The translations under genes and the position numbers were made by a program. Below, piece by piece: positions 6,559 through 61,527 of a stretch of DNA of 64,000 bases; position 1 is the first letter of the stretch, and every line of letters begins with the position of its first letter. The notes beneath the pieces were generated by a model. That model searched no databases, was not told the origin of the DNA, and worked only from the letters and a program-made list of their open reading frames with translations. This stretch comes from a virus, in IMG/VR virus record IMGVR_UViG_3300043436_001870, positions 32,001-96,000 of that record; one strand, 5' to 3'.

Positions 6559-6989
6559 TGGAAGAAACATTAAAACTTACACCAGAAACATGTGATAATA
6601 TTTTGAAGATCATGGAAAGCAATGACCAATCTAATTTAGTTATTGCTACTGAGACAATTAGAAATATTAATGTTGTAGAAAATTTACCTTATTTGTTAAT
6701 CATGTACAAACAGTCATCAGTTACAAATCGTCAAACAGTTTTTCTTGATACAATTAAAGACAAGATTCAGAGTACTTGTAAGACAATAACCTTTACAGAC
6801 AAGGTAAAGGATCTTACATATAATAAGTTGTACTATGAATTGAAAGCTCATAAAGAAATTGATCCTGAGGCAATGAATTACTTCCTTGATAAGTTTTCTG
6901 ATAGTTTGTCAGAGGTTATGATTAGCTGGGGGTTCAGTTTTATGGAAGATTTCAAATTGAAACTTATACCAAGAAAGAATGGATTATAA
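6558..6989 (+). CDS. Helical protein sharing a domain with the 340- and 370-aa proteins downstream
   Basis: N-terminal 'LTPETCDNILKIMESNDQSNLVIATETIRN' aligns by eye with the C-terminal segments of 9381-10403 and 10406-11518. Confidence 0.7.
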   Translation: MEETLKLTPETCDNILKIMESNDQSNLVIATETIRNINVVENLPYLLIMYKQSSVTNRQTVFLDTIKDKIQSTCKTITFTDKVKDLTYNKLYYELKAHKEIDPEAMNYFLDKFSDSLSEVMISWGFSFMEDFKLKLIPRKNGL

Positions 6990-32500: not shown

Positions 32501-35172
32501 GCTGTGTTGTATGCTTCATTTACCTTGTCAACATACTCAGAGAAAAGAGCATCGGTGCTATCTCCTAAAAGCTTGCTGATCATACTATTCATTACATAAG
32601 GAGAATCAGCAGCAGTTGACTCAATTGTCTTAGTCTTATTTAGTACATCAAAGTTAGCATTGGCTTGATCAAAAGTATAACCAGTTAGATTACCTACACG
32701 TAGTTTTTCATACAGCTCTCCAATGACTTTGTTGTCCCTAGGTGAAAGCTGTACTTCATCAACAGTTGTTCCTCCAAACAAGTTCTTAAGTAAATCAAGT
32801 AACCATTGGAAGAACTTATTACGTACAGGCTTGCCTTCTACAGGCTTACCTTTACCCAACATAAATTCACGGAAATCCTCTGCAAGATACTCCTCTAGCT
32901 CTAGTAGAGTAGCATCAGCAAATGATACTGTTCTACCCATATATGACATGAATGTGCCGGTGCTCTTACGTGCCTCAGCATACATCTCATTTCTTTGGGC
33001 CTCAGTCATGAATGTCTGAGTAAACCCATGCCATGCTTCATGGTATAAATCAGTAAAGTCAGAACCTTGGAAGAGAGTAATACCAGATAATGTCCAAGTT
33101 GCAACAGAACCTCTTGTATTAGAGTTTACTGCATTGAACATTACTTCATAAGGAATAACCTTAGCTAAAGGACTTCTCTCATACCATGCTTTAGCAGCAT
33201 AGATCTGAGCAACAGTTGCTTTAACTGATTGTTGCTTATCAAGTTTGTTGAGACCTTTGGCCTTACGGATAGTCTCTTCAAGCTTACCATTCTTTATGGC
33301 ATTACCAATTACATTAGAATCAGCAGAACTTCTACCTCTTGGTTGTCTAGCCTTTGCCTTTGTAACTGCTTCTTGTGCTGCAGCTTCATTGACTGGATTA
33401 GAAACAACTGGTGCAGTGCTTACAGGAGCTTGTGGTTGTTGTACTGTTACTGGATTCTTTAATACTGTTTTACCAACCTCAGCTTTTACTGGACTGATTG
33501 TAAAGTATCCATTGTACTCACGTAGTTTACCATTAGAGTCAAAGAATCCTCTGATCTCTTTTGAAACTCTATCTAAATATTCTATTTGGTTCTCAGTAAA
33601 GTAATCTAAAACAATGGTACCATCCTGCTCAGACAAATTGAAGTTTGTGAAACTATTTTCATTAAAGTTCTTAGTAAGTATACTGTATTCTCTTGGAAAT
33701 TTTTTTTTATCTGAAGAAATAGCATTTCTTAATTCTTGAAAAGAAAGAGCATCTGTTAATTTTTGAACAGCAGAGGAATCATTTAAGTCTATGTCTTTTC
33801 CATTATGAGTAATGTATAACTCAGACAACTTATAGTCAAAGTCTATCTTAAGACCTTTTCTTTCTTGTCCACCAAAGAATGAATTAATTAACTCATACTT
33901 TTCTTTTAGGGAAACTTTTACTCTTTTACCTTCAACATTTTTATATACGTCAGTGGTAAGAAGTTTAACAAGTTTATCTATATCAGTTTTGTCAGCAGGT
34001 TTTGTAAACACTTGTACTGACATATTACTTGCTCCAACCTTAAGTTGAATTGATTGTTTCTTATCTTTTGTAACAAAATCTAATTTTAAAGGAACATTAC
34101 CAAAATTGGCCTGTGAAACTTTGATACTAACTCCTTTTGCATCAGTATAAATACCAAGACGTGCATCTGTAATAGAATAAACAATTGTATTACCTGGATT
34201 CTGATTCAAATATGCATAGCTTTTACTCAATGCATCAAATTGTGCAGTAAGTAATGCTTCAGCCTGCTCAATAGATATCTCACCTTCAGAATTATCTGAT
34301 ATTTCTTTTGGTGACTGTGTATACTCATTCTTTTGCCAGTTGTACTTACCATTGTCAAGTTTTCCTGGAATAGGTCTTGAACCATAATAAATTATACGTC
34401 CTTTATCTGATACATTAAACTGTTCATTAAAGTATAAAGGTGTACCATTGACATCTGTAATTACAAATGCATACGGATTTTTATTTGCAGGCTGAGGGTA
34501 TATCTGACCTTCAGGGATTCTCTTAATAGGTACAAGACTAATATGAATACCGCCAGTTACTCCAGGATACTCTATACCAGTTTCTCCTGGTTTAGGAGTA
34601 AGACCTTTTGCAGCCAAGAACTTAATAAAGTCTGTGTAATAAGCTAATGCTGCATCCTCTCCTAGACTGGCATTGCCTGGATCAGACAATGTATTAATTG
34701 TTGTAGCAAACGGATTAATAGGTCTAGGTCTTGTAAAGGGTACTCCTGCCTTGCTAATCTGAGCACTTACTAAAGTTCTTTGTTCCTCAAAATTGATTTC
34801 AGAAATGATTTCTCCAAGATCTTTAGGAGGCTCATTGAGTCCTAGATAAGCTACTGTATTGTCAAGTCCTTTTTCTGGATTTGATAATTCATCTCTCAAG
34901 TCAAAAACCTCATCAAGACTTAATCCTTTTTTACGAATTTCCTTGCTTTTTGGTTGAGCAATCATCTCTGGAAGAACAGCAGCTGTTAACATAGCATACT
35001 CAACAGCCAAGTTTTTATTTCCTGATTTAGCTAACACTCTGTCATAAATACTTTTTAGGTAGTTATTCAGATTAAAAGTTTTTGCAGGATCATTAATAAT
35101 CACTAATAAATCCTTTGCAATTTTTTTACGAAGGACCTGTATCTGCTCTGGGGTTCTTGTACAATTGATCAT
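23530..35172 (-). CDS. Virion-packaged single-chain double-psi beta-barrel RNA polymerase fused to a zincin domain and a Dda/RecD-like SF1B helicase
   Basis: RIP.QG and GGDFDIDK catalytic motif (DFDID at 28441-28455, as in phi14:2 gp66); HEAWH (33028-33042); helicase motifs GYAGTGKS, DEAS, GDPAQL, HKSQGSTY, YVALSRA. Confidence 0.92.
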   Translation of the reverse strand: MINCTRTPEQIQVLRKKIAKDLLVIINDPAKTFNLNNYLKSIYDRVLAKSGNKNLAVEYAMLTAAVLPEMIAQPKSKEIRKKGLSLDEVFDLRDELSNPEKGLDNTVAYLGLNEPPKDLGEIISEINFEEQRTLVSAQISKAGVPFTRPRPINPFATTINTLSDPGNASLGEDAALAYYTDFIKFLAAKGLTPKPGETGIEYPGVTGGIHISLVPIKRIPEGQIYPQPANKNPYAFVITDVNGTPLYFNEQFNVSDKGRIIYYGSRPIPGKLDNGKYNWQKNEYTQSPKEISDNSEGEISIEQAEALLTAQFDALSKSYAYLNQNPGNTIVYSITDARLGIYTDAKGVSIKVSQANFGNVPLKLDFVTKDKKQSIQLKVGASNMSVQVFTKPADKTDIDKLVKLLTTDVYKNVEGKRVKVSLKEKYELINSFFGGQERKGLKIDFDYKLSELYITHNGKDIDLNDSSAVQKLTDALSFQELRNAISSDKKKFPREYSILTKNFNENSFTNFNLSEQDGTIVLDYFTENQIEYLDRVSKEIRGFFDSNGKLREYNGYFTISPVKAEVGKTVLKNPVTVQQPQAPVSTAPVVSNPVNEAAAQEAVTKAKARQPRGRSSADSNVIGNAIKNGKLEETIRKAKGLNKLDKQQSVKATVAQIYAAKAWYERSPLAKVIPYEVMFNAVNSNTRGSVATWTLSGITLFQGSDFTDLYHEAWHGFTQTFMTEAQRNEMYAEARKSTGTFMSYMGRTVSFADATLLELEEYLAEDFREFMLGKGKPVEGKPVRNKFFQWLLDLLKNLFGGTTVDEVQLSPRDNKVIGELYEKLRVGNLTGYTFDQANANFDVLNKTKTIESTAADSPYVMNSMISKLLGDSTDALFSEYVDKVNEAYNTAAATTTLIKDKQSLSVGYDYVREQMTAQLEYLLEERSKMDSNIEDTSDTDFAIDTIAAGLANFGDPYNLDNPVGLVKFHMENSTLMKSTIQAIEEEASITDRNVFEKRAGNEVPLANLAKPDVLFTIRSLKAYEKDGSVKLNILGLPDLNDFKKSWNRILNITEGANTDNEVYEKLKLAAEDYPIIKELMSKIGSPQNLDEASVNLWTDFTKILTMPRINLRMLELKQTDRFIQDVQGGFGRKETSYIVSPVEATGEFRKVGRRWNDNFAIADEGEYITKDIYGNNILNVNAVYRQFRNTKFTKDNIDDIYKFFDSIGIVLEDGKSAKADAYKSGLANYGKRTMDYLQAIYAYNKSKDGLLNPIKIQAPSDIYKNYKSDSAYKLPKKIEQVSVRQVLGGGSGIYNGLQKFQLKWSDDFADTTVNNANNQSQQERSLRSTISNQIGKWNRAKSITELTQEGVPNANDLSMSHLSPSRNPFVKSTIIYKSTFDENGVRRTYKDSSSGQQVPVSIQLNNMAGFMNQYTNTRNIMERSGIDASSADETTKLVGDFLMLTLYGATEATRHADKATTLLYKLLNGKLHYIDLKNFKTAGGKTEFADTLIGYLSSEFERIQKLKNGDPSATVTVGDKTYGEVAQDFVIFNGILKPETITNLKEQLATSPEVQTSEQFLKFVDGNLDLKNLLQTDITDYLTEQRQKNAKMLQESGILSNTGVINSLLEKLETGDSERSPKDVINGLTAERREKMITALIDGYTANDWIHKYEFSVMFYGDPALYKNVDDFFKRNAGIAATGDFARTGPAMTAYIDSKFAQVSYAATRGKTRASFGNTMNSAVMQDVVSKSIYYDTYLEAALKIEKDRLKKVNASPETVAKAEASIKKVFSKYTEMTEADGQGWISFDAYRALLMSLNKWTPNQEFLYNKIVKGEEVAMDDVLNFFPVKKMQYWGPLMGTGLPATAFHKYSLMPLIPSVIKNTPLENLHNKMVDQDIDYALMQSGSKVSTITKDGKADKFYNDNQRTTEGYAFDAPTYQFTKNTVFLDYFKDQLEVAEYYKKKVTFSSQLRKLIEQGLFENKVPVDYKPNIADKNERYRLWNAENDKLSTKFARYASRFEKILDSLVEIEKQKIRDQVGSTKKSLIEFIKSELSGPGKKLSEHEVDFLGVDEATDTLLRDLDLSPSADVIERALVNIAQKRILNQKLTGESLVQVSGVGFEQGRLRTATEEEIGRYGGTNGLPFYNPKLDKKGNVISVSAMKIKISLQGPFKNLLNHADVVKYSNENGVTRLDALNHLIKQEWWLNQGDNRAMVTTAAVRIPVQGLNSMEVMEVFEFLPEESGNIVILPAEIVAKSGGDFDIDKMFTFFPTIKTKREVNEEDYALISDILGFGIDAAIVNEIKELVQLGEDLDISTLTEEEKDILRAIDTYYEDKTSAVMNFGDDKAGLENQLLGVIKDILLDPFNFSSLITPNTTDTMEPLGETIAKETKGAGTQKAKGLSEIFEVGRNLYKHQSNNVGKDVLGIIAVVNTFQSIFGRSGLVLTKNRIITQTQRGSVEHPQRLKFAHNKIGDSITLSANYDAEQLNKISDIISQLINGSVDVAKKAWIFDVQGNKELINSLLFMTMAGVPVEDAVYFLSQPIIRDFVKEQRKFKSQYSRAIGYGDVGNFFRNEARDRILFADKGDNKYGFNWLVADFQEKSDKDSTSKYKNKKPSKRLVFEEIDRLVEGIGEFKKADLAGRLNKSNDFDNYDRSVFLHFLEISEMSSQITQLTQNLNFDRTKTETLLDARLRLAKIDDLANGIEPESIQNIIENSPVSAYKIQDFILDLFSDLFPLRDSKEVNRKIASLTDKDISGMPPISAYKKMTGLDADEYIERFRSDLINYVFQSNYYRFNQTQGVYRGFEVQVPIEGVTYLRAGARVKNGILYASKSDILTTFQQELYSKDSMWENEVAPVESSVFALYDAKTAEALYTKFVYEREVLRSFEKNSPENLKNSSIYKTHLNTFKNDSKPAFKAYEATLRDMALDNLNYHGHMFFGGRSYAKQVLEIGKENPSLLDKYEVLDRLEISTGGSSFVTNDGKKQEVTINNLKFTGDRPTPEELDLYTQQIEELADPNVIKVEDPIENERISKVFARFGLYALLQTGIDTTSAFSLIRAVPNDMFYGLLKSSYDKFLTDLKARPNTVLDEYTSLFNNQYRIDNKNVSNKLKNYAFNPEGIPSDIVRITDDTVSELETPLETEEETPGRIVTINGINLNLDKLDIPFTPNDQQLEALQQIADFIDNPNQDVFTLMGYAGTGKSSITKIALEYMRQRGLSINVTAPTHKAKKVIAKLAKTGAVTLQKLLGLGSSSKLTKTDLRKIKLTVQKESLYKPDVVIVDEASLVGDELFDALSDYAGEGKTKILFIGDPAQLNPVEEDKTTSKRSKAFDHPYKYELTKVERQAGSNPLGPILEDIRNNQKKDTSAIDAKTELSGNQGIVTTKTGVDFTRQAIAAFKSENFKNNRNFVRILSHSNERVEDFNQVVRNKIWFDKEVDTSKILEYVIGDIIMAYENVGYKKGGTFQINNSVDYEVLSVQAENKMTFNGLGGLELTGYTIQLQEIDGDGDIYEKFVLSRSTSQEIINLLAQKLVEYQKSLDAQVESGELRANQAFAIYSGLKDSIMTPFDVTDKKGRVVLKKSIDYGYAHTIHKSQGSTYTNVFVDTESIIEAPVSLEEKNQLKYVALSRATNIAYALNRNGQSGGQNIEWNGDFGSKKVVAGKISKSTNKKRVGDIQTLTLFELLQDTSTGVLTFNLLTSTDEKTKKVVNQFDKLTDQNAIQLSVDYPNTIFVRNEASTQSRDTAGTNVVYRAMGDNSLGIRTKSLPRVSQAKEGKIKDFNAKAAWTDATLKENKAMIDEDIAALMEKKESGVNLAFDSNGYGQYLIGYNEYFPAAADAQYADKTTIGVQTFLYLSQQLFEKFGYINPHYLTFGEGRIVVQYGAPVTDEEIAEFNNKCFK

Positions 35173-48922: not shown

Positions 48923-51900
48923 TCACTTGTATTTATTAAGCCACGAGCTTGTATTAGACAAAGTTACACTATTAATATACTTATTTTTACTGAGAGATCC
49001 ACCTTTTTCAAATTCCTGTTTTTGATTATTTTGTAAAACAGGTTGAGGAACCTGCAATGGTTGTGGTGCTCTTGGTTGTATATATGGAAAAGGTAATGCC
49101 TTTAGTTGATTATGATAATCTGCATATTGTGATTCCAATTCTGGTAATTTTCCTTGATAACTATAATAATTCATTGTTTTTGGATTCATCCAATTTGCTA
49201 GTTCCTCTTCATCTTTAGGTATTTCAAAAGTCCAATCCTTTCCGGAACCGGAATCATAAAAAAAACCTTTTTGTGTATCTGTAGCATTTCTTCTTATTCT
49301 AGAATCAACATTAGAAACATTGCCTGATGATACCATTGTATGCCAATACCCTGGTCTTTCAATCATTGCTACATCACCAGCTTCTAAATTTTCATACTTT
49401 GTAGGATACCAACCTTTATCAGGAGTAAGTTCATCTTTTAGTTTTCTACCTGATGAAATTTGTTTTACAGGATATCCTGATTTTCTTAATGCTTCTGTAG
49501 CTCTTGTTGCACAATATTGTTGACCATTTGGTAAAACAGTACAAAAAGGAACATTATCCATAAAATGAGATTCTCCACTATCTAATAGATTTTGTTTAAA
49601 TCTTTGTATATCCGCATACTCAGTTTCATAATTTTTTCTTATGTTATTCATTTCACTTTGAATATCATAATATTCTGGGTTACTTCCTCCCTTTTGATAC
49701 TTGTTTATCCATCCACCATCTTTTTGTTGTGGAGTATCTTGTCCTGCTATAACAGCTGCAGCTCCTGTACCTATTGCTGCTGGTACTAATGCTTTATAGA
49801 TATTAGGATTAGTCATATCAAACATTCCATTGTTGCCTATTGCTGATTTAATATTTTTTGGGTCAAAAACTATAGTTTGTCTATGGTATGGAAAAATGTT
49901 TTTATCAAGAATACCATCATAGTTATTTTTTAATAACTCATTAAGTTGTTCATTTGTTATTTGGTCGTTTCCATAAGTACCTTTTACTCTACCTGAATAT
50001 GGTTTTTCCATATTAATGTATGTTTGGTATATTTCTCTTTCATTTTTAGGTGTATTTCTTGAATAACTTTCAGCCCTTGACTTACTGGGCGTAAAATAAA
50101 TACCTTGGTCTCCAGTATATGTATCTCTTTTAATATACCCTTTATCTTGGGGTGTTAAAAATTGTTCATACCCTACTTTACCTCCATGATATTGAAAAGC
50201 AAAACTACCATCTGAATTTACTAATTTAGAATTACCAAATGCCTTTTTAAAGTTTTCACTATTCTGTTGCACAAATTGTTCAGGCGTTCCTTTAAAAGGA
50301 GAACCATCAGGATTTTTCATCCAACTACCATCAGCTTTAGTTGTTTGTTCTATAGCATGATACTCATCCATTAAAGCTTTATTAGATGGTATTTCAGAAT
50401 TCCATTTGCCCCAATCTATTTCTGATTTAAATTTATTAGCAGAACCTGGTAGTTGAGTAGGTGTAAAAAGTTTTTGTTGGTCTAAAGGAATTACAAACTC
50501 TCTATCAGCAGCTCTACTTAAAGATTTATCATAATTTTGAAACTCTGCTAACCTACTCTTAGGTACTTGTAGTTGTATAATCTCTGGGTCAACAAATTCT
50601 CTATCAGCTTTGTAAAAATCAAAATCTGCTTTATCTTTTGTAAACCATTGTCCAAAATATTTTTCTCTATCTTTAAAATGTTGTATAGCTTTTTCATTTT
50701 GAAACATTGGTCCTAATTTACCTTCAGCAGCTAATTCAGACATGGGTCTAGCTCCTCTTTCTTGTATTCTCCATAAATCAACTAAATCATCAACATTACC
50801 AGAATCTGGTAATTGTTTGGTCTTGCTCCCTTTAGACCCTTTTAAAAATGGAATAGGTAATGATCCAGCTAACTCTAAAGCTCCTTCTGCAAGATTTCCA
50901 GAAGCAATATTAGAAAGTCCATAGAATGCTCCAGCTCCTGTAGGAAAGATAATGTTATTGAATGTTTTATTAGCATCTTCTCTTCTATCCATAATTGCTT
51001 GCTGAACCTCTGCTTCACCACCTGGTAATATTCTTTCTCCAGTTTGAGGATTTTCATAAACGGTCTGCATAGAACCTAAAGCTCCGGGAACTTGTCTTGC
51101 AACAAAACCCTTAGGAGTTTTTTTGGTATATGCAGTCATTATCCTATGATTTAGAGCTGCATCTTCCTCTACAGGATTACCTTTTGGTTTAGGTGTGGCT
51201 ACAGAAGTTTTATCTGCAACAGCTTGTTGATTGCCTACATATCTAATATCACTAGTATCAACAGGCTGCTTCATAAACTTGGCAAGCTCTGGATTAACTT
51301 GATTACCGTCTTGATACTTCTGTAACCAACCACCATACTTATACCCTGCTTTAATAAGATGTTTTTGCACATCTCCTTTTGTTAAGTCACTAACAAAACT
51401 AATAGTCTCCATAAGATTCTTTGCAGTATCAAAATTCATATTTTGACTAAGCATACTAAGTGTATTATACTCAGCATTTTTATCTATCTGTCCTAGTATT
51501 CCATCTCTAATAAGTTTTTTTAATGTTTCTTCTTGCACGGTAGGATTTATATTTCCAATATTTTTAACCCAATGATTACTCATTTTAGGGGTTACTGCTG
51601 GTGATAGATCAATAAACTTAAAAGAATTAGAAGCATCATCATAAAAAACATTACTGCCAGCATTATCAATTGCTGATCTATTTTGTGCTAACTCAAAATA
51701 GTCTTTTGCATATTGAGTCCAGGCATCTGTTGGAATATTAATTATCTTATCTGTTGGTAAAGAATATAAAGGTTTACCCTCCATTCTACGCATTATATAT
51801 GCATTTAATATGTCAGGTTTTGTTATAATCTCAGCACTTTTTGGAGAACCTGGTATGCCATTATCCTTTACTGTATCAGCCAAAGCAGAGATATTCTCGT

Positions 51901-54900
51901 TCGGCACTTCTGGAATATATTTTTGATTATTAGATAAAATTCTTTGTTGGTTAACTACTTTACCAACATTAGGACTCTTAATATTTTTTTGCATTTGACT
52001 TAGGTCAATGTCCATAAACTCAGGAATATATTGAGAAACTTGCTCAGGACTTTCATATTTAAGCAAGTAACCTGGATAATCAGGTAATTCATATACTCCT
52101 TTGTTAAAAGCACCGTCAGTAGCAATGTTTGGACCTGTCCGAACAGCAGTTACATCAATGTTTTTTGGAGACTGGTAAACTCTTTTGTATCCAGTTAGCC
52201 AGTTTGGTTTAGCTTCATAAATTGCATTAATATCTTCAAGATCTAGCTGCTGTAAAACTTCTCCTGTTTCAGGATCAATAGGTCTAGCTGCTGCATGACG
52301 CCCTACAATTTTTTGACCTGTTACAGGATTTATTTCTCCTCGGGAATACATAGGTACATCAGACTGCATTAAATAATGAGGTGTTGAATCAGTGCTTTTA
52401 AAAACCTCTGCTGGTTTTCCTTTTGAAAAAGATGGAAACTCTGTAGGTCTACGAAATACCGAATTATCTCCAATAGGATTAGCCCTTACTAAAAATGTTT
52501 TGAGTGCATCATCATATCCAGCTTGATTCACATATCTATAATTCATGTTTCCTTCTAATGGTGTAAAGACACTTCCTTTAGCAGTAGGATTTATTTTATA
52601 TGTATATTGTAAAGGTGTCTGAGTAGTAAGATATTTACCTGCTCTTGCTGCATTCTCAGCTATATTAGTTCCTTCTAATAATCCTATACCAACAGCATTG
52701 AGTGGATCATACCCTGCTTCATAAAGATTACTCATTGCAGCTGCATATTCTGGTTGTCTATAATCTGTAAACAATGGCTTAGATCTCTGACCTTGTAGGG
52801 CAGAACCAAAATCTCCAGTAATAGCACCTGTCACAAGATTAGTAGGATAAGATAACGGTGCCAACATTCCCATAGCAGATGCATTGGCGGCTTCCTCTTG
52901 AGTATAATCTGAATTAGTCCATAATGGTTGATTAATAAGATTGTTACCTTGATACCAATCAATAGGTCCAACGGCAGCTATGTTTGCAGCATTTCTTAAA
53001 TTCTTCTCAAGACCTTGGCTAAACTGACTAGTAAAATCTGGATCTAGTTTACCAGCATATTGTGATCTTTCAATAGTAGATCTTTCTTCCGGGGTGAGAG
53101 AGTTTAACCACTCTACTCTAGTTCTGTCTCCCTGAGGTTTATTACCTAAAATCTCTAGAGCTACTTGATCATTGGCATTCTGTGATGCTCTTTTTTGAAC
53201 ACGGGGATCTAATGGATTCATACCTAATGACTTAGCAAAAGGTGTCATCTCACCCTCTCTTGTCTTAGCCGCTATCTTCTGCTTCTTTTTATCTAAGTCA
53301 GTAAGATTATACTGATACTCAACAGGCTTAGTCATAACAGTCATAGGTCCAAATTCTGGATCATATGTCTGATATGAATCTTTAAATAAGAAGTTCCATT
53401 TGGGATCATTAGGATCTACCTCAGTTTTTCTACCATCAGCTTTTCTTACAGCTTTTTGAAGCCATCTTTGCTTTTCTTCAGTAGTAAGAGATCTTCCTTT
53501 TTTACGTTCTTTCTCTGCAAGTAAGTCTGTCCACTGCTCTACACCTTTATTGTATTCATCCCAACCTTTAGCATAATCAGCAGACTGTTGTGCCTGTGGA
53601 TCTAGAGATGGAAGAGTAAAATTACTTGTTGGTTTAACTTGACTAGAACCTTCATTACCTTGATATTTATTTAACCAGCCACCATACTGCATGGTCTGTT
53701 TATCATATAGATCTACAGCCTCATGATACTGGAACTTACCATCACCCTTAGAAGCATTAGCTCGTCTGTAATTGATATAGTTATCATACCCACCTTGTTC
53801 AATTAATTGAGCAGCTACTTTACCAATAGATTGATTGTATGATATTCCTGCTAATTTAGCAAGCTGGTCTGATGTCATATCTAGACCATACTCATTGGCT
53901 ACTTCTTTTAGGTAAAGGTAGTTTTTACTAAGTACATAGAATGTTGGTAAGCCTGCCTTTACAGGATCCGTAAGTTCATAATCAGACTCATATAACTTAC
54001 TTCTTAATTGAGGATTGATGTTAGTCTCATCTTTTAGGGATGTGATGCCCATTGATTTTTCTCTCTCAGGCATAAGGGCATCCTGTAATCCTTTTGCTAC
54101 AGCACCTGCTACTATACCTGATGGTCCTGGTAGTACATTTGATATAATAGATTTTTCATAATTCTTTCCTGCATATGTTTCTCTAGTAGGAATAATCCGA
54201 GCAACTCTCATAAGTTTTCCAAACTCATTTTCTGTAATAGGAATATCCTTAAGAATTGAATCTTTATTCTTCTCAATTACTGAAAGAAACTTATGAGTAT
54301 TTTCTCCTGAAATTGATTGACCAGCCCAATCTGCTTGATTTGCTAAAGCACCTTCAGGTTTAAATTGGCCATATTCTGTTTGGTAATAGGATATACCTCC
54401 TGCTGGTATCCTTCCATCATTGTCTACACCATCAAAATAGTTAGGTCTTGTGATACCTGCAATTAATGATACCTGACTCTTACTATTACCTGGTACCTTA
54501 CCTTCAATAAAATCTTCAACTGGTTGTTTTTGAAGATCTCCATGGACATTATGCTCAACATATAATTTACCATCCTTGTCAGCTTTTACAATACCAACGT
54601 GTGTAGTAAAGAATCTATTATTTAAAGGCTGAGTTTGATTCCATGCTTTCTTTGTAGAAGGAGAACCTTCATAAAATATATTAACAACATCACCAGGTTT
54701 AATGTTACCTGTATTCAACATTTCTCTTAGCTGTCCTTTTACAGCATCATTATTCAATGTTGATTTAAGATAGTTTTTTATTTCATTCTCACCAGCCTTA
54801 GGTGACAATGGAATCTGTGATCTTTCAGGTAAACCTGTAAATAAAAGTTTACCTCCTTTATTTTGCAAGTTTTCAGAAAGAGTCCATGCATCACCTTTAA

Positions 54901-56344
54901 AACCAAGTTCTTCTCTAGCCTCTTCTCCTACAACATCCTCACTACATACAGTTCCATTAATATATTGAGCACATCCTCTTACAACTTGTCCTTTTACTTT
55001 AGCATCTTCAGTTTTATCATAGTCCTGATTAGGATCTATACTAAAGTTGTAACCTATCTTAATATCAGATGGTTTTAAGTTAAAATCATACTTTACATTA
55101 CCTGTAAAAAAACCTCTTTTCATAAGATCTTTTTCAAAGTCTTGCATTGACTGATTAGTTAAACCAACATCTGGTTCACCAGTTTGTGGATCATATAACT
55201 CAAATGGACTTCTTACAGAAATACCTAAAGTACTCTTTGCATCAATTTTATTCTTGTATGCACGTATAGCATCTTTAGTATTATTATCAAGTTGTCCAGA
55301 GTTGTACTTCTGGTTATACATGTTATACTGACGTATAGCATTAAGAGTCTGTTTATCAATTTTACCTGATAAATTACCATCTATGTTTTCACCAGTAACA
55401 CCAAGAACTTCAAGTAATCCTTCATTAGCCAAATATTTCTGAAGCTCAATTACTTGTTCAGGAGTTTGATAGTCTTCAACTTTAATTATTTTCTTTGTTT
55501 CTGGATAATAACCTTTTCCATCTAAATAAGACTGAACCTTTATGATATCATCTGGTGTATAGTCAGAGGCATTCTTATGTCTTAGATTAAAATCTGCTGT
55601 TTGCTTATATGCATTTACAGCTTCATCTTCATCCTTGTAGGGTGCAACAAAAAACTCAGGTGATGCAGCATACTTGTTAACCTCTCTTCTCTTTTCAATC
55701 TCCTTAGTTTTAGGTATATCAACACCTGACACAAGTGAGTATAACTCTGGAGCAATCTCAGCCATTGCAGGATTCTCTACAAGATTAGTAGGTTCTTCAG
55801 CAGGATTCTTAGCAACAGGTTTTGAAGCAGCTGGTTTAGGAGCAGCCGGCTTTTTAGTTTCGGATACACCTAATGATGACAACCATTTGTCAACATAATC
55901 TTGTGGCTCATTTGCCTTAGGAGCAAACTTTGCCATAAGGTTCTTAAGTACTTGTGACTTGTTTGAATCAAGCTCTTTCCATTCTTCAGTACCCTTCTCA
56001 CGGATTCTCATTCCATCAGGTTCATCAATATACTCAAGTCGGCTACCAAAAGTTTTGACACCACCCTCTTGATATTTACTCAACCATCCTTTATCAGAGA
56101 GATCTGGTATTGATATGTCACCTCCTGATTGAGCCATAGGTATCTCATACACCATTTTACCAGGAAATTGATACTTGCCTCCAGGCTGCATCATAATAGG
56201 TGGTTGGCCAGGTACAAATCCCATTACAGGGTATGGTACACCCTCCATGGTTATTCTACCATCTTTAGTTGGTACTGCTGTAAGTTTTCCTGGATGAGCC
56301 CATTGACCATTCTTATCTACAATAAACTTATTAAGCTTACTCAT
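48923..56344 (-). CDS. Large polyvalent virion protein (PG-binding-like, two CHAP/NlpC-like amidases, lysozyme-like, kinase-like and ART-like domains)
   Basis: 2473 aa; GCAQY...THVGIV; YCATRA...WHTMV; GAFNKGVY...K...DNAGSN...IDL; YHG...GIYFT...YDGI...IKSAIGNNGMFD. Confidence 0.8.
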   Translation of the reverse strand: MSKLNKFIVDKNGQWAHPGKLTAVPTKDGRITMEGVPYPVMGFVPGQPPIMMQPGGKYQFPGKMVYEIPMAQSGGDISIPDLSDKGWLSKYQEGGVKTFGSRLEYIDEPDGMRIREKGTEEWKELDSNKSQVLKNLMAKFAPKANEPQDYVDKWLSSLGVSETKKPAAPKPAASKPVAKNPAEEPTNLVENPAMAEIAPELYSLVSGVDIPKTKEIEKRREVNKYAASPEFFVAPYKDEDEAVNAYKQTADFNLRHKNASDYTPDDIIKVQSYLDGKGYYPETKKIIKVEDYQTPEQVIELQKYLANEGLLEVLGVTGENIDGNLSGKIDKQTLNAIRQYNMYNQKYNSGQLDNNTKDAIRAYKNKIDAKSTLGISVRSPFELYDPQTGEPDVGLTNQSMQDFEKDLMKRGFFTGNVKYDFNLKPSDIKIGYNFSIDPNQDYDKTEDAKVKGQVVRGCAQYINGTVCSEDVVGEEAREELGFKGDAWTLSENLQNKGGKLLFTGLPERSQIPLSPKAGENEIKNYLKSTLNNDAVKGQLREMLNTGNIKPGDVVNIFYEGSPSTKKAWNQTQPLNNRFFTTHVGIVKADKDGKLYVEHNVHGDLQKQPVEDFIEGKVPGNSKSQVSLIAGITRPNYFDGVDNDGRIPAGGISYYQTEYGQFKPEGALANQADWAGQSISGENTHKFLSVIEKNKDSILKDIPITENEFGKLMRVARIIPTRETYAGKNYEKSIISNVLPGPSGIVAGAVAKGLQDALMPEREKSMGITSLKDETNINPQLRSKLYESDYELTDPVKAGLPTFYVLSKNYLYLKEVANEYGLDMTSDQLAKLAGISYNQSIGKVAAQLIEQGGYDNYINYRRANASKGDGKFQYHEAVDLYDKQTMQYGGWLNKYQGNEGSSQVKPTSNFTLPSLDPQAQQSADYAKGWDEYNKGVEQWTDLLAEKERKKGRSLTTEEKQRWLQKAVRKADGRKTEVDPNDPKWNFLFKDSYQTYDPEFGPMTVMTKPVEYQYNLTDLDKKKQKIAAKTREGEMTPFAKSLGMNPLDPRVQKRASQNANDQVALEILGNKPQGDRTRVEWLNSLTPEERSTIERSQYAGKLDPDFTSQFSQGLEKNLRNAANIAAVGPIDWYQGNNLINQPLWTNSDYTQEEAANASAMGMLAPLSYPTNLVTGAITGDFGSALQGQRSKPLFTDYRQPEYAAAMSNLYEAGYDPLNAVGIGLLEGTNIAENAARAGKYLTTQTPLQYTYKINPTAKGSVFTPLEGNMNYRYVNQAGYDDALKTFLVRANPIGDNSVFRRPTEFPSFSKGKPAEVFKSTDSTPHYLMQSDVPMYSRGEINPVTGQKIVGRHAAARPIDPETGEVLQQLDLEDINAIYEAKPNWLTGYKRVYQSPKNIDVTAVRTGPNIATDGAFNKGVYELPDYPGYLLKYESPEQVSQYIPEFMDIDLSQMQKNIKSPNVGKVVNQQRILSNNQKYIPEVPNENISALADTVKDNGIPGSPKSAEIITKPDILNAYIMRRMEGKPLYSLPTDKIINIPTDAWTQYAKDYFELAQNRSAIDNAGSNVFYDDASNSFKFIDLSPAVTPKMSNHWVKNIGNINPTVQEETLKKLIRDGILGQIDKNAEYNTLSMLSQNMNFDTAKNLMETISFVSDLTKGDVQKHLIKAGYKYGGWLQKYQDGNQVNPELAKFMKQPVDTSDIRYVGNQQAVADKTSVATPKPKGNPVEEDAALNHRIMTAYTKKTPKGFVARQVPGALGSMQTVYENPQTGERILPGGEAEVQQAIMDRREDANKTFNNIIFPTGAGAFYGLSNIASGNLAEGALELAGSLPIPFLKGSKGSKTKQLPDSGNVDDLVDLWRIQERGARPMSELAAEGKLGPMFQNEKAIQHFKDREKYFGQWFTKDKADFDFYKADREFVDPEIIQLQVPKSRLAEFQNYDKSLSRAADREFVIPLDQQKLFTPTQLPGSANKFKSEIDWGKWNSEIPSNKALMDEYHAIEQTTKADGSWMKNPDGSPFKGTPEQFVQQNSENFKKAFGNSKLVNSDGSFAFQYHGGKVGYEQFLTPQDKGYIKRDTYTGDQGIYFTPSKSRAESYSRNTPKNEREIYQTYINMEKPYSGRVKGTYGNDQITNEQLNELLKNNYDGILDKNIFPYHRQTIVFDPKNIKSAIGNNGMFDMTNPNIYKALVPAAIGTGAAAVIAGQDTPQQKDGGWINKYQKGGSNPEYYDIQSEMNNIRKNYETEYADIQRFKQNLLDSGESHFMDNVPFCTVLPNGQQYCATRATEALRKSGYPVKQISSGRKLKDELTPDKGWYPTKYENLEAGDVAMIERPGYWHTMVSSGNVSNVDSRIRRNATDTQKGFFYDSGSGKDWTFEIPKDEEELANWMNPKTMNYYSYQGKLPELESQYADYHNQLKALPFPYIQPRAPQPLQVPQPVLQNNQKQEFEKGGSLSKNKYINSVTLSNTSSWLNKYK
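48926..56095 (-). repeat. Five dispersed GGW[LI]xKYQ peptide repeats within the 2473-aa gene
   Basis: KGWLSKYQEGG (~56060-56092), YGGWLNKYQG (~53657-53686), YGGWLQKYQDG (~51305-51337), DGGWINKYQKGG (~49685-49720), SWLNKYK* (~48923-48946). Confidence 0.85.
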
Positions 56345-59300
56345 TATCTTGGAGAATTGAGGAGTTTAGTATTTGTTACTTTCAACAACATTTTTACATT
56401 GTCTGATATTGTTCTTGTAAGGACAATGTGATTCAGGTAATGTCTGAACTTCTTACGTTCAAATGGTGACTTATTATAGTTAAGGTTATTTACATTCAAC
56501 ACTCTAATGTAACCATTAATTTCTGTATTCCAAATAGGTTGCTGAGCCTGTACACCGCCCACAATGAATTCACCACGGTTATTGGTTATGTCCCAGAACT
56601 GATTGAATCTGTATTTCTGTTCCTCCTTAGAGTATAGAATACTAATACTGTTTGGGTTTACCTGAGGATAGTTTACAATTACTGGAGCATTGTTCTTAGG
56701 ACTAGTAATCAAATTAAGTGTACCAGAAACTTGTTCAGTATTATAAACTATAGCCTTATCAAAATTAAAATCAAGAACATGGAATCTATCAATACCATTA
56801 GGATTGTAAACATATGCCTCCATAATGTATTCAACATTTCTGGTAGTATTAACAGCTTGTCCTGTAACAGATGCATAGTCAATCTCAAATGGATAGTCTA
56901 CACCATAGAAGTTACAAAACTTACTAGTAAAGTTACCATGTCTCCAAATGCTTGAAGATCCGTTCTGAGTGTTTGTTGTAAGGAAACCTCTAATACTTGA
57001 CATAGCATATTCTGGATGCCAGTCATGGAATGACAACCATATTCTTAACTTAGAGTCAAAACTTACTGTCCATGATGCATCTTCAAAGTACAAAGGATCT
57101 CCAAGTACAAATGGAATCTTAGCACCACCTGGTGCTTTATAAGTAAAATCAAGTCCACCTAAATATGTAACATTGTCAATGTACTCATCCTTGACTCTGT
57201 AGTCTTTCTTGCAGAAATAAATAATACCATTGTCATTATCATAAAGTGACTGGCAACCAATTCCTACAACAGGATTATCTGCTACTTCAAAATTAGGAAA
57301 CTGATCAAGTAGGAACATCTTTAAATATTTAGAGAACCACCACTTCATACCCATATCAGATATGGCAGCCATTCCCTCAGCTACTGTAAAGATCTTACCT
57401 TGTGATGCACTCATCCAAAATATACCAGCAGGAGTATTTATAATACTCAATCTATGCTGTGATGAACCATGTTGAAACTCTTGATCAGCATTGCTTAATG
57501 TCTGAAGTGGTTGACTAAATAAGCCACCATCTCCAATTGTAATTTTAGTGCCAGCTGTTGTTTGAAGTTGATCAACAGCATTAAACATCAATGGTGTTGA
57601 ATGCTCAAACAAAATAATAGCACCATTCTTATTTATGGATTTGAATGCTACAACTCTGTCATCAAAGTCATTGTAGTTGTTTACAAGATAAATATGCCAG
57701 TAGTCTTTTTTATCCTCTTGATTCTGTGGAAGAGAGTATATTACTCTATTAGGAAAATATGTGTAACATTTTTCTGCTGTGGTAGGACTGTAAGATCTAT
57801 CCTGCATAGCTCCCCATGATAAGAAACTATTTAGAACTTTTGTTACACCAAGAGAAATGTCATACTTGTAGAAGTTACCGACTCTTATGATATCTGTGCT
57901 AAACAGATTATTAAGATTAGCATACCCATATGGATCATAGAATCTTTCAGCAGGAGTATCATTGTAATCTCTGTGATCTACGTTGTATTCAGTTTCAACA
58001 TAAAAATCTAAGACTCCTGATTGAAACAAATACATGTAAGCATTCTTTACTCCAATTCTAAAACTAGAAAAAAGATTTGCAAAAAATCCATCAATACCTG
58101 TATTGTCAACTCTGTCTAAGTTATATCTACCAGAAGGCAGTGGATTGGTTATAGCATCAACACCTCCTTCAAGAAGATTCTGAACGGCACCTGTTAAACC
58201 TTGAATAAAATCAGCTGTATCATATTTGCTAAAGTCTGCAAAAAATCTTGCATAGTTTACCATATACCTTGTGGTATAATCAATCTCTGTTCCTATAGGT
58301 ACATTGTATAACCAATCATAAAAATAGAAGAAGGTATTCTTCTCAGTGTATCTTCCTATGTAAACATCTCCACCAAGTATTAATGGTGTTTTGTCTACTA
58401 CAACTCTTGATCTTGGTCTTGTAGGGAATGTATAGTCTATTGCTTCTGGGCCCAGGGGCTGATCAAAAGAAAATACACAGCCTGTTGTAATCTGGCTAGG
58501 TGATTCTATCTGACCATATTGGTTTCTAAATCTTACCTTTAGTCCCGCATAAAAAGCTGAGCCTGTTGCATTAAAAGAACCTCCAGGACTATTGAACTTG
58601 ATACCCTTATTAAATACATTAGGATTATTCTGAACACTACCTATAGTCTGTACAGAGTTGTCAGCTAATGATGGATCACCAATTGGATTATTAAGTTCTA
58701 TTGCAACTGTCTTAGATCTAAATAAGTTATTTACTGTTTTATCAGAAAACGTAGTAATCTGATTGTCAATGTATACTGAGTTTATAATAGATCTTCTGGT
58801 ATTAGCAACACCATTCAGATTCAGCTTAGCATTACCCTGAGCATACTTATTAAGATTTACATGGCTTAAGCTCCGGTAAACATAATCCCTATAAGGAGTG
58901 ATAGATCTTAATAGTTCAAGCATTGCATCGGTACCCTGCATCCAGTATGATGCAAATGTTACAATACCACCTGCTGTTCTAAATATAACAGGAGCATAAC
59001 TAAAATCAGACCTTTCTACCTCATACTCCATTGATGGTCCAATACCTGCAGCACCTAATGCAGCACCTCCAGTTACAGCTCCTATTTGTCCAAATATTAT
59101 TCCTTGAATAGTGGCTAATGATGCATCAACTCCACCACCAGCCATAGTACCAATGTTAAGAGCACTACCGGCACCAGTTGGACCATAATTATAGTTATCA
59201 TTACCACCTAATGGAGTTAGTAATCCGACATTGATTGGTGTGGCTGGTACTGGAGCAGTTCCACTAAATCCTGGTGTAAAAGTTTTACCTGTCTGATATT

Positions 59301-61527
59301 TACTAATATCTCTACCACGAATAGATTTCATGGCAGTACCAATACCTACAATTGCTGATATTATAAAAGCTAAGTTAGTTATTAACTTCTCTTTAGGATG
59401 CCCAGGAACAGGTTCAAAACGACCCAGCATATTAAACCTAGATCCCACCTCTCCATAAAGTTTTAATTCAGTTGCAGATAAGAAAGGATCATTAAAAGTT
59501 GTGTCAGGAGAATGAAAAGTAAATAAACGTCTACTAACATTATCATTCCAGGTATTAGAGTTATTAAGCTGTGCACTATAACCACCCTGACTATTAAAAT
59601 TAGAAAGAGTATGATCCTTTCCTAAGTAATTGCAAACATAGTTTTGGTAATAGATCAATTCATCTTGACTACCATTATCTTCAACATAATAACGCATGTT
59701 GCGGATTATACCTTTAGCAACAATAGTTCTATTACCTTGTCTGTTTGATCTTAGAATTTCATAACCAATTACACCAGGAATAATGTTACCATCATTGTCA
59801 ACAGGAGCCTTAATGTTTTCAAACTCAACACCCAGAATTCTAATAGCTCTAGCTTGAGTAGCTGTAAAAGTAGTACCAGAAAATGATCCTGCCGATGTAC
59901 GTACATGACCATAGTTTTGACCTGTAGCAACATCACCGTAAGTTGTATCTGTTGCATATATAGCATCAGCTGGCATCTTATGGTGTCTTATAGGAAGTCC
60001 ACATAAGTCATATGCCGGATCAGATGTTCCAGCCCATGTATGCTGAGTTGCATTCCATATCTCTGGTTTGTTTGCTGGATATTTTTCAGTAGATTCCCAG
60101 TAACCCATTTTACCACGGGCTATAACCTGACCAGCTACTACAGAAGCAGTATCAGTAGGTAAGTTGTTTTCAATTACATAAGCTGTATTAACAACTTCCC
60201 AGAGTTCAGGAATATAATTAGGATCCTGAGCATATTCAATATTATCAAGATTGGCAGAACTAAATGAAGCTTTTTCCCATGATTGAGCAGGTCTACCAGG
60301 TATATGATATGAACTAGATCTTTCACCAGTATTATAAACCCAGCGAATATAGAAGGCATACTGCTCATCTCTCATGTAACCATTTTCATTACCACCATTC
60401 TCATAGTAGTTTGGTGGTTGCTCAATCATTACCCAGTTTGTTCTGATCTGATTGGCCAATGGCTGATAATTAAAATCAAACTTTGCAGTAGGAGCTGCTC
60501 TGATCAAGTAATTATTTACAGCATACATACCTTCAGACTTCTCATATGCTGGAGATCTAAGTGGTATATATGATAAAGGAATTGATTCTAATTCTGGATT
60601 AATGTAATCAATAGTTACAGAATTAGTCTCAGTAACATAATTACCAATCTTTCTAGCAACTGTCTGTTGATTTACTGTACCAACAATAACAAGTTCAAAC
60701 TCTTGAAATCTATCAGTATCCATATTTGAAAAACTGATATCAAGTGAACCTGTGGCATTGTTATGACTAAACAGAGGTTGAATCTGAGAAGGATTAAAAT
60801 AGTCAGTGACACGTTGCTGATTAATTGTATAAGCAACAACGGCATAGTAACTACCATTTAATAACTGCCCACCAGTAAGTCCTGTGCTAATTTTAACACA
60901 GGGTATCTTCATTAACCGAGCAATCCTTGTTTTCTCTACATCCAGAGTCAAAGGAATGTTTGGTTGACAGTCAATACAAGGACCAGGTAAAACATCTGTG
61001 CACTCATAGGGCACACCTGGCCATGGCTCATTCTGAGTAATATCAGGATAGTCTCTGAGTCTTACATCACCAATATTTAAGGTCCTGTCTGGATTCAAAG
61101 CATCACACCAGTAGAGCTGATAAGAGCAGTCAAAATTCTGCTTAGAAGCTCCTATAATTATGTTAGTTCTTTTGAATCCCCATTGAGTATCATTACTAAT
61201 TGGCTTATACTCACATAACTCATCATTGAATAATCCAATTTCAGAATTGATATCATCTGTTGTATAAACAGCCCAGTAGTGTTCTACAATAGGAATAGCA
61301 CCTATAAAGGTGTATGGTAATGTAACACACTTTAAGTTTGCAGGCTCATTTCCAATAATACCCAGGTCACCAGAGTCTGAGTTATTTACCACATTTCTAG
61401 CATCATACCATGAACCCTCAGGAGCAAACGTGGGGTCATAGTCTTTAACCATACCTTTGTTAAAGGTATTTGTCTCAGCACTGCTAGTATTCTGTGATGG
61501 AGTATTTTCTGATGATTTCTTAGCCAT
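56344..61527 (-). CDS. Tail stabilization/muzzle protein (P22 gp10-like, crAss-type)
   Basis: 1727 aa; N-terminal 'NTFNKGMVKD.D...PEGSWYDARN', 'YMRDEQYAFYIRW', 'GGDVYIGRY', 'WLSFHDWHP'; beta-rich; follows the tube/ring genes. Confidence 0.8.
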   Translation of the reverse strand: MAKKSSENTPSQNTSSAETNTFNKGMVKDYDPTFAPEGSWYDARNVVNNSDSGDLGIIGNEPANLKCVTLPYTFIGAIPIVEHYWAVYTTDDINSEIGLFNDELCEYKPISNDTQWGFKRTNIIIGASKQNFDCSYQLYWCDALNPDRTLNIGDVRLRDYPDITQNEPWPGVPYECTDVLPGPCIDCQPNIPLTLDVEKTRIARLMKIPCVKISTGLTGGQLLNGSYYAVVAYTINQQRVTDYFNPSQIQPLFSHNNATGSLDISFSNMDTDRFQEFELVIVGTVNQQTVARKIGNYVTETNSVTIDYINPELESIPLSYIPLRSPAYEKSEGMYAVNNYLIRAAPTAKFDFNYQPLANQIRTNWVMIEQPPNYYENGGNENGYMRDEQYAFYIRWVYNTGERSSSYHIPGRPAQSWEKASFSSANLDNIEYAQDPNYIPELWEVVNTAYVIENNLPTDTASVVAGQVIARGKMGYWESTEKYPANKPEIWNATQHTWAGTSDPAYDLCGLPIRHHKMPADAIYATDTTYGDVATGQNYGHVRTSAGSFSGTTFTATQARAIRILGVEFENIKAPVDNDGNIIPGVIGYEILRSNRQGNRTIVAKGIIRNMRYYVEDNGSQDELIYYQNYVCNYLGKDHTLSNFNSQGGYSAQLNNSNTWNDNVSRRLFTFHSPDTTFNDPFLSATELKLYGEVGSRFNMLGRFEPVPGHPKEKLITNLAFIISAIVGIGTAMKSIRGRDISKYQTGKTFTPGFSGTAPVPATPINVGLLTPLGGNDNYNYGPTGAGSALNIGTMAGGGVDASLATIQGIIFGQIGAVTGGAALGAAGIGPSMEYEVERSDFSYAPVIFRTAGGIVTFASYWMQGTDAMLELLRSITPYRDYVYRSLSHVNLNKYAQGNAKLNLNGVANTRRSIINSVYIDNQITTFSDKTVNNLFRSKTVAIELNNPIGDPSLADNSVQTIGSVQNNPNVFNKGIKFNSPGGSFNATGSAFYAGLKVRFRNQYGQIESPSQITTGCVFSFDQPLGPEAIDYTFPTRPRSRVVVDKTPLILGGDVYIGRYTEKNTFFYFYDWLYNVPIGTEIDYTTRYMVNYARFFADFSKYDTADFIQGLTGAVQNLLEGGVDAITNPLPSGRYNLDRVDNTGIDGFFANLFSSFRIGVKNAYMYLFQSGVLDFYVETEYNVDHRDYNDTPAERFYDPYGYANLNNLFSTDIIRVGNFYKYDISLGVTKVLNSFLSWGAMQDRSYSPTTAEKCYTYFPNRVIYSLPQNQEDKKDYWHIYLVNNYNDFDDRVVAFKSINKNGAIILFEHSTPLMFNAVDQLQTTAGTKITIGDGGLFSQPLQTLSNADQEFQHGSSQHRLSIINTPAGIFWMSASQGKIFTVAEGMAAISDMGMKWWFSKYLKMFLLDQFPNFEVADNPVVGIGCQSLYDNDNGIIYFCKKDYRVKDEYIDNVTYLGGLDFTYKAPGGAKIPFVLGDPLYFEDASWTVSFDSKLRIWLSFHDWHPEYAMSSIRGFLTTNTQNGSSSIWRHGNFTSKFCNFYGVDYPFEIDYASVTGQAVNTTRNVEYIMEAYVYNPNGIDRFHVLDFNFDKAIVYNTEQVSGTLNLITSPKNNAPVIVNYPQVNPNSISILYSKEEQKYRFNQFWDITNNRGEFIVGGVQAQQPIWNTEINGYIRVLNVNNLNYNKSPFERKKFRHYLNHIVLTRTISDNVKMLLKVTNTKLLNSPR

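Follow-up and report, generated by a model that had tools for sequence, protein, structure and literature searches.

Phage polypeptides that unite many unrelated effector domains, and whose genes lie among those of virion proteins, have been described as polyvalent proteins and proposed to be delivered together with the DNA and possibly processed (PMC5512222). With phage crAss001, the gene that follows the muzzle gene encodes cargo protein C1 (gp45); this 90.8 kDa protein, for which no enzymatic domains are reported, was found in virions by mass spectrometry (MS) and cryo-electron microscopy (cryo-EM), short segments of it were resolved on the portal and inside the tail barrel, and probably also at the muzzle, and its ejection was predicted to proceed N-terminus first (PMC10172136). 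The gene considered here, P0001, is located in a 64,000-nucleotide stretch of viral DNA (the window) representing bases 32001-96000 of the 113-kb IMG/VR virus record IMGVR_UViG_3300043436_001870, estimated to be 95% complete. P0001 (positions 48923..56344, minus strand) is a single open frame encoding 2473 amino acids (aa), and it was assigned to the post-muzzle cargo slot because the muzzle gene lies directly upstream; like that of crAss001 gp45, it is immediately downstream of this gene. On sequence grounds, its product is a polyvalent protein of the phage type (PMC5512222 class), given that an ADP-ribosyltransferase (ART) domain of the ART-PolyVal family, a hallmark PolyVal domain, and a protein-kinase fold occur in one open reading frame (ORF) located among virion genes. 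Like the proteins of that class, it joins the hallmark ART-PolyVal domain to putative peptidoglycan (PG)-cleaving domains; however, their description (PMC5512222) includes no delimiter or terminal peptide, whereas in the P0001 family one peptide with the core WLxKY is found at both joints and termini. P0001 also differs from gp45 in being three times longer and in carrying enzymes and the peptide. Neither the motif, nor its placement at termini and joints, nor the leader domain that accompanies it was found described in the literature searched, and with polyvalent proteins and crAss cargo proteins both already known, the tag peptide is the new element.

An earlier note on this DNA had claimed that five copies of W[LI]xKY[QK] divide the 2473-aa protein and that the last forms its C-terminus, and a motif scan bore this out, with copies beginning at aa 87, 890, 1673, 2212 and 2468. 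Copy 1 (WLSKYQ, aa 87-92; 56069..56086, this and all further features of P0001 being on the minus strand) falls within a stretch of low predicted local distance difference test (pLDDT) values in the AlphaFold2 (AF2) model; copy 2 (WLNKYQ, aa 890-895; 53660..53677) is a junction in the relatives P0014, P0016, P0017, P0019, P0074, P0002 and P0004; copy 3 (WLQKYQ, aa 1673-1678; 51311..51328) begins 7 aa past the last helix of the kinase-like domain; copy 4 (WINKYQ, aa 2212-2217; 49694..49711) is a junction in L033/L037, P0012 and P0019; and copy 5 (WLNKYK-stop, aa 2468 to the end; 48926..48943) is the C-terminus of P0001. The last of these closes a conserved C-terminal tail (aa 2446-2473; 48926..49009) that is common to relatives and recurs behind different modules in P0002, P0012, P0020, P0021 and P0074. 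Blocks A to D between the tags span 803, 783, 539 and 256 aa, and the repeats of P0001 consist of the five 6-aa tags only. From composition, 0.0024 copies would be expected by chance; 54 of 20000 shuffled sequences contained one copy and none contained two. Elsewhere in the 113-kb genome, the motif occurs in no ORF, save for a loose WIHKYE in an ORF of 3880 aa.

The peptide is common to more than 100 proteins of very divergent uncultured phages. A scan of IMG/VR for W-[LF]-[DN]-K-Y-K-stop returned 88 stretches, 80 of which were examined; 57 of these matches proved to be true ORF ends (100-2043 aa), about 55 with the ending GGWL[ND]KYK-stop, many of the C-tagged proteins also had internal copies or started with MA[NK]WLDKYEQGG, and about 29 of the loci had, just upstream, a homolog of the muzzle protein with 27-55% identity. 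The peptide was likewise encountered by a retrieval blind to the motif, in which aa 1040-1672 of block B were compared by phmmer with 1.84 billion representatives: 70 of 156 homologs bore it, 45 of them no more than 9 residues from the C-terminus and about 20 no more than 8 from the N-terminus, and the remaining copies were situated at Gly-flanked joints. The joints follow the consensus K-x-G-G-W-L-[DNS]-K-Y-[QDE]-x-G-G, with conservation of 100% for W, 95% for L, 88% for K and 85% for Y. C-terminal copies have the form G-G-W-L-N-K-Y-[KN]-stop, without the trailing GG, and N-terminal copies the form M-x(0-3)-W-L-D-K-Y-x-x-G-G, without the leading GG. Internal copies possess the left flank of the former and the right flank of the latter, and because their flanks combine both terminal forms, a joint resembles an in-register fusion of two end tags. 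Minimal members of the family (133-194 aa) are composed of an N-terminal tag, the leader and a C-terminal tag with no enzyme, so that a protease acting in cis is not a general feature of the family. Among 185,579 prokaryote genomes, the pattern was matched eight times and never by a family member, and on this ground a sorting signal of the host (Bacteroidota) was rejected. A packaging signal of all cargo proteins was also rejected, as none of the six remaining giant ORFs in the block has the motif.

Other forms of the peptide occur among related phages. The closest relatives, L032 and L034, have WLDNY and WLDKAQ variants both internally and at the end, the L034 form NWLDKAQKG being an intermediate between tag types. 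In the sister phages L033 (15259-22128, 2290 aa) and L036 (15316-24105, 2930 aa), whose muzzle proteins are 55-56% identical, the post-muzzle proteins are punctuated by VKIxxLPKAQxG, which is also found at their extreme C-termini. The sequences suggest that one motif family, L-x-K-[YA]-Q-x-G, spans these variants. Post-muzzle proteins of further lineages (L023-L030 and L056; L038-L054) have tails that are conserved on otherwise variable proteins and are lineage-specific, reading …ACRPSKRV…SKTSSQRIxYNHKRNK-stop or …GGEYYADEDEIKRILAMGGEIEYLD-stop. Such proteins (e.g., L025, L030, L042, L050 and L053) draw on shared small cassettes split by x-x-G-G, a pool that includes a CxxC…CxxC zinc-ribbon unit (SCGWSWK…CHKCGG), a QHGGLDRWFAEKWVDVKTGK unit and a YTVTRSNDRKGKTHKVTGPDGTVKYFGD unit.

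All degenerate codon positions of the tag vary, and the exact run of nucleotides (nt) shared in register between copies has a family-wide median of 7 nt, with 17% of pairs sharing at least 12 nt; the five copies of P0001 share 3-11 nt. Selection therefore acts on the peptide, and any recombination at the tag would be only at the level of microhomology. As conserved DNA sites for recombination, the repeats were discounted, because the copies in P0001 share at most 11 nt in register. The modular multi-enzyme chain envisaged earlier was supported, and relatives were found to differ by whole blocks. In P0014 and P0017, leader and tag are fused straight to block B (from aa 890 on, at 76-83% identity), block A being absent precisely between copies 1 and 2. 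P0012, P0020 and P0021 have extra sequence ahead of the point aligned to copy 1 of P0001, and in P0012 this point is a tag copy itself. The SLT module of P0002 is joined, after GG, to the 28-aa C-terminal tail of P0001, and P0004 diverges from the continuation of P0002 at the same point after this module. Over 49 tagged proteins, 14.6% of BLAST alignment ends were within 5 aa of an internal tag compared to 2.3% at random, the pairs not being independent. Exchange of payloads at the repeats, as first suggested, is thus seen in whole-block differences with junctions on the motif, but several junctions are off it. One case involves a 120-aa cassette (aa 1843-1968; 50441..50818) bounded by QLP[DG]S[GA]N; running from QLPDSGN to QLPGSAN, it is 94% identical in the closest relative P0013 and 89% in P0016 with its flanks replaced, and by sequence its ends are a second kind of seam within the gene. 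The loci L102 and L118, on one 118-kb contig (IMGVR_UViG_3300037488_000489), represent two diverged copies of the end of a tag-bearing gene, in which a stretch of ~57 aa just upstream of the terminal GGWLNKYK is replaced by 3 residues in L102; the pair reflects either a paralog or the assembly of two strains.

The leader domain of P0001 (aa ~8-75; 56120..56323) was modeled by AF2 as a small beta domain, with pLDDT >90 for aa 11-70, after which comes a disordered stretch containing tag copy 1. Through the muzzle protein, 36 related phages were collected, and the product of their post-muzzle gene (550-2930 aa) has almost nothing in common between one phage and another; the sole piece shared by all 36 is a ~70-aa domain equivalent to aa 8-75 of P0001. 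The expectation that the leader would be conserved across relatives thus held for these 36 phages, but not its N-terminal position, which is seen in some, while in others the domain is internal or C-terminal. No Pfam match was obtained with the leader, and Foldseek with its model gave no match with E below 0.19, crAss001 entries not being among the matches listed. The leader is homologous to the N-terminus of gp041 of Cellulophaga phage phi17:2 (hhalign 96.8%, E 2e-10), the ortholog of which in phi4:1, gp040, is a structural protein by tandem MS (MS/MS) according to its GenBank annotation. The leader is likewise found at the start of the Lbo-JY46 post-muzzle protein, from a Leptolyngbya phage, which has a lysozyme-like C-terminal part. 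These three proteins are like P0001 in their N-terminal leader and in the position of their genes downstream of a muzzle-like gene; unlike P0001, they are without the WLxKY tag and have few or no extra enzymes. The leader homolog in phi4:1 is the best, albeit indirect, support for an association of P0001 with the virion.

The explanation we favor is that WLxKY forms the core of a position-independent recognition or address tag that also marks seams, a proposal to which the sequences lend about an even chance. That WLxKY itself would be recognized is argued by the terminal copies, which have no Gly spacer on their free side, and that recognition would be independent of position by these same copies together with the minimal proteins of N-terminal tag, leader and C-terminal tag. 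As a short linear recognition tag, WLxKY would be set off by the GG pairs as spacers towards the neighboring module, and most likely, as the virion is loaded or its contents are ejected, it would dock or order the chain on a shared partner. Internal copies would arise by the in-register joining of a C-terminal tag with an N-terminal one, and the tag would mark the seams where modules are gained and lost. The payload would comprise enzymes that breach the envelope (PG-binding repeats, an SLT-like domain and both Cys-His papain-like domains) and enzymes that modify the host (a protein kinase of minimal size and ART-PolyVal), together with further modules; a protein kinase and an ADP-ribosyltransferase are probably injected along with wall-degrading enzymes. 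Packaging into the virion, ejection, a docking function and a partner for it are what we infer from this arrangement, loading being suggested by the gene position and the leader homolog of phi4:1.

Several observations weigh against a recognition tag. The tag is confined to one protein of the genome, and hence is no general packaging signal; it is patchy among related phages, some of which have VKIxxLPKAQxG or other conserved tails in its stead; and the nearest experimental virion data come from distant relatives that are without it. Exchange points also occur off the tag, at aa 1843, at aa 1968 and at aa ~1210-1256, the latter a boundary hot spot without a tag. Moreover, the terminal copies could be non-functional relics of the way the cassettes were assembled, and the partner of the tag is hypothetical. 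A complex prediction for three copies of leader plus tag (alignment A1) gave a score of 0.00, which is neither support nor counter-evidence.

The joints might instead be proteolytic sites: a protease of the phage or of the host would cut the polyprotein at or beside GG-WLxKYQ-xGG, either prior to packaging or once it has been ejected, and periplasm-acting and cytoplasm-acting enzymes would thereby be freed. Indeed, the motif is present at every major block boundary in Gly-rich linkers, enzymes of different compartments reside in different blocks, and a cut after KYQ would leave every fragment ending like a natural C-terminus. As for a protease, HExxH motifs are found in the neighboring 3880-aa and 1906-aa proteins of the cargo block and beside the leader in relatives such as L036, P0001 itself has two papain-fold-like Cys-His domains, and MPTase processing of polyvalent proteins has been proposed (PMC5512222). 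Nevertheless, about 20 proteins start with M-x(0-3)-WLDKY and at least 45 end with WLxKY[KN]-stop, where cutting would remove nothing useful and where any scissile bond lacks residues on one of its sides. Furthermore, the residue after Y differs, being Q/D/E internally and K/N at the terminus, the minimal tagged proteins are without a protease domain, and unlike the frequent polyvalent setting, no MPTase was detected with the P0001 genome, Pfam MPTase-PolyVal (PF18818) having no match anywhere in it at E<=0.01. Cleavage was consequently judged rather unlikely, and a recognition tag is favored over a pure cleavage site.

A mere evolutionary seam, that is, a linker spread with the cassettes and kept by recurrent microhomology recombination with no role in binding or processing, would account for the clustering of homology breakpoints on the motif and for the internal copies that look like chimeras of C-terminal and N-terminal tags; codon bias makes TGGTTA[AG]A[TC]AAATAT common, and 17% of copy pairs have at least 12 nt in common. 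What renders this improbable is that, with free synonymous change, W never varies and L, K and Y reach 85-95% conservation across phages whose muzzles are only 27-61% identical, that the terminal motif is retained regardless of the last module, and that the corresponding positions in other lineages, C-terminus included, are occupied by a different peptide of equal conservation. There is a similarly slim prospect that the tag acts in the host, either as an interfacial aromatic/lysine anchor to membrane, PG or DNA or by binding a conserved host factor. A host partner would easily explain the patchy distribution among phages, a hydrophobic stretch precedes copy 4, and a composition of Trp, Tyr and Lys is typical of interfacial anchors; on the other hand, six residues are very few for an autonomous anchor, these data offer no pointer to a host partner, and the tag flanks modules of both the periplasmic and the cytoplasmic type.

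The recognition tag may be taken one step further, to a hitherto unrecognized address code of crAss-like cargo proteins, in which WLxKY and its sister LPKAQxG, placed at each joint and both termini, would dock the chain onto repeated sites within the tail or portal and set the order of ejection, with any enzyme that has a tag on either side plugged in by in-register joining. This is a tentative extension, perhaps worth entertaining but doubtful; if true, it would represent a natural plug-and-play system for the virion delivery of effectors. Any correspondence of the tag to the 14-residue helix left unassigned at the crAss001 muzzle would be purely speculative. A short peptide or a processing step governs virion loading with the internal proteins of T4 (the capsid-targeting sequence), DarA/DdrB of P1 and the inner-body proteins of phiKZ. 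In those cases the signal is located at the N-terminus and a head protease removes it; the tag of the P0001 family, in contrast, is internal and at both termini, and we know of no head protease in the source phage. A six-residue peptide with an invariant core at ends and joints provides a concrete experimental handle on the loading, ordering and re-assortment of a giant chain; were it to prove a loading tag, foreign proteins could be introduced with its help into the virions of these abundant phages in laboratory strains.

The earlier note had also likened P0001 to the polymorphic toxins. An exchangeable payload array was indeed found, but the idea of a phage analogue has already been published as the polyvalent proteins (PMC5512222). 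MARTX and polymorphic toxins resemble P0001 as arrays of exchangeable effectors within a single chain whose ends are conserved and whose payloads vary; however, the glycine-rich repeats and the inositol-phosphate-activated cysteine protease domain of MARTX have no counterpart in P0001 by Pfam scan, and delivery would be by the virion rather than by secretion, such that the likeness is only in working principle.

With regard to domain content, an ART domain of block C and the kinase-like domain proposed earlier were upheld, but not the 'ART-like' domain of block B. The ART-PolyVal module (aa ~1970-2200; 49745..50437) was assigned by Pfam; PF18760 matched aa 2045-2175 with 42.9 bits against a cut-off of 31.2 (E 1.1e-10), homologs were found at L001-L018, and by hydropathy the module ends in the hydrophobic stretch IYKALVPAAIGTGAAAVIA. 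The protein-kinase-like domain (aa ~1401-1666; 51347..52144) is minimal and of OspG/NleH size. An AF2 model of aa 1215-1672, built with a 43-row alignment, had a mean pLDDT of 87.7, and its C-terminal ~270 residues form a protein-kinase fold. Foldseek returned at least 500 matches to it with E<=0.001, and protein kinases made up nearly all of the listed ones; VIA gave Z values of 10.7 with PknS, 9.2 with OspG and 8.8 with NleH1, its top 50 (Z 8.3-10.7) all being protein kinases or kinase-fold phosphotransferases. A protein-atlas lead, OspG, agrees with this fold, and the motifs DNAGSN (the D-x4-N catalytic loop type) and FIDL (the downstream Asp) were read from the translation. By these predicted structures, the presence of a protein-kinase fold at aa ~1394-1672 of P0001 was verified. 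OspG and NleH are like aa ~1400-1666 in fold and size, with 155 and 154 residues aligned at 16-20% identity, but they are delivered by type III systems and the P0001 kinase would be delivered by a phage.

Ahead of the kinase, block B contains module B1 (aa 896-1240; 52625..53659), which is 68-84% identical in several relatives, and module B2 (aa ~1256-1400; 52145..52579), a widespread and beta-rich unit delineated by homolog search. Most of the 275 homolog matches to the phmmer query cover B2, and in the AF2 model its pLDDT is mostly >90, with a dip to ~70 at aa ~1285-1304. Ten stand-alone homologs of B2 belonged to no Pfam family, and the reading of B2 as an ADP-ribosyltransferase was not supported, there being no Pfam match and an hhalign probability of only 0.2% against ART-PolyVal. 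It is very common in metagenomic phage proteins, including stand-alone ones of 170-280 aa, with the consensus YRxV…RPTxFPSFxKG…RGDxNPVTGxxIxGRHxAxRPID, and its invariant R, D, T and H residues suggest an enzyme.

The remaining assignments, namely the PG-binding repeats, the two Cys-His papain-like domains and the SLT-like domain, are leads only. PG-binding-like repeats (aa ~262-362; 55259..55561) were indicated by Pfam PG_binding_1 below its cut-off (aa 296-360, 21.2 bits against 23); the relative P0012 reached 23.9 bits over the whole protein with no single stretch passing the E-value limit. The first putative Cys-His (NlpC/CHAP-like) domain (aa ~450-640; 54425..54997) and the SLT/lytic-transglycosylase-like module (aa ~700-880; 53705..54247) were proposed from sequence motifs only. 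With the small alignment A2, C458/C467 and the motif 'THVGIV' of the former were seen to be kept in homologs, and the latter to have an invariant Glu (the E of 'TRET'), E-x-S-x-G and N-Q. The second putative Cys-His (NlpC/CHAP-like) domain (aa ~2255-2400; 49145..49582), in block D, is a protein-atlas lead only, with CHAP/NlpC_P60/Amidase_5 clusters scoring 0.85-0.87; this module is 47% identical in L033/L037. P0001 has only four cysteines (aa 458, 467, 2268 and 2278), and all of these are within the two putative Cys-His domains. A Pfam scan of P0001 gave nothing besides ART-PolyVal and PG_binding_1, and that of four giant relatives was almost empty. Searches of PDB sequences with blocks A, B and C+D, and with a profile of the CHAP/SLT region, produced no match; homolog searches gave six unannotated matches with aa 440-895 and none with block D.

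The upstream neighbor of P0001 encodes a crAss muzzle protein of 1727 aa (56344..61527, minus strand; Pfam PF25731 crAss_MUZ, E 1.4e-28; PHROG virion structural), the stop codon of which overlaps the start of P0001 (TAATG); the next ATG begins 1 nt after the P0001 stop. Given this Pfam match and the crAss001-like gene order, the source phage is, by sequence, a divergent, uncultured, low-GC (about 36%) crAss-like phage. The nearest cultured relatives by muzzle protein are Leptolyngbya, Cellulophaga and Flavobacterium phages, at 24-30% identity. Pfam and PHROG scans turned up no likeness of P0001 to gp45, no direct alignment with gp45 having been made, and P0001 had no match to PHROG. With 50,697 phage records, tblastn of P0001 and its leader returned ART matches only, or none; a metagenome scan yielded only a relative with 81% identity.

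Downstream of P0001, on the same strand, are six further large ORFs of 844 to 3880 aa. Of these, the 1702-aa and 1906-aa neighbors had no PHROG or Pfam match. The 3880-aa ORF (window 23530-35172, minus strand) encodes a giant multi-domain protein of the cargo block with a Dda-like helicase/exonuclease V-type domain at aa 3145-3615 (PHROG 325, E 6e-79). It also contains an HExxH motif, HEAWH, at aa 710, and further such motifs were noted in the 1906-aa ORF (FHEFAHP at aa 173; window 17809-23529, minus strand) and in a 400-aa ORF (KHELLHIALFH at aa 70; window 6979-8181, plus strand), these latter two being candidate zincin proteases.

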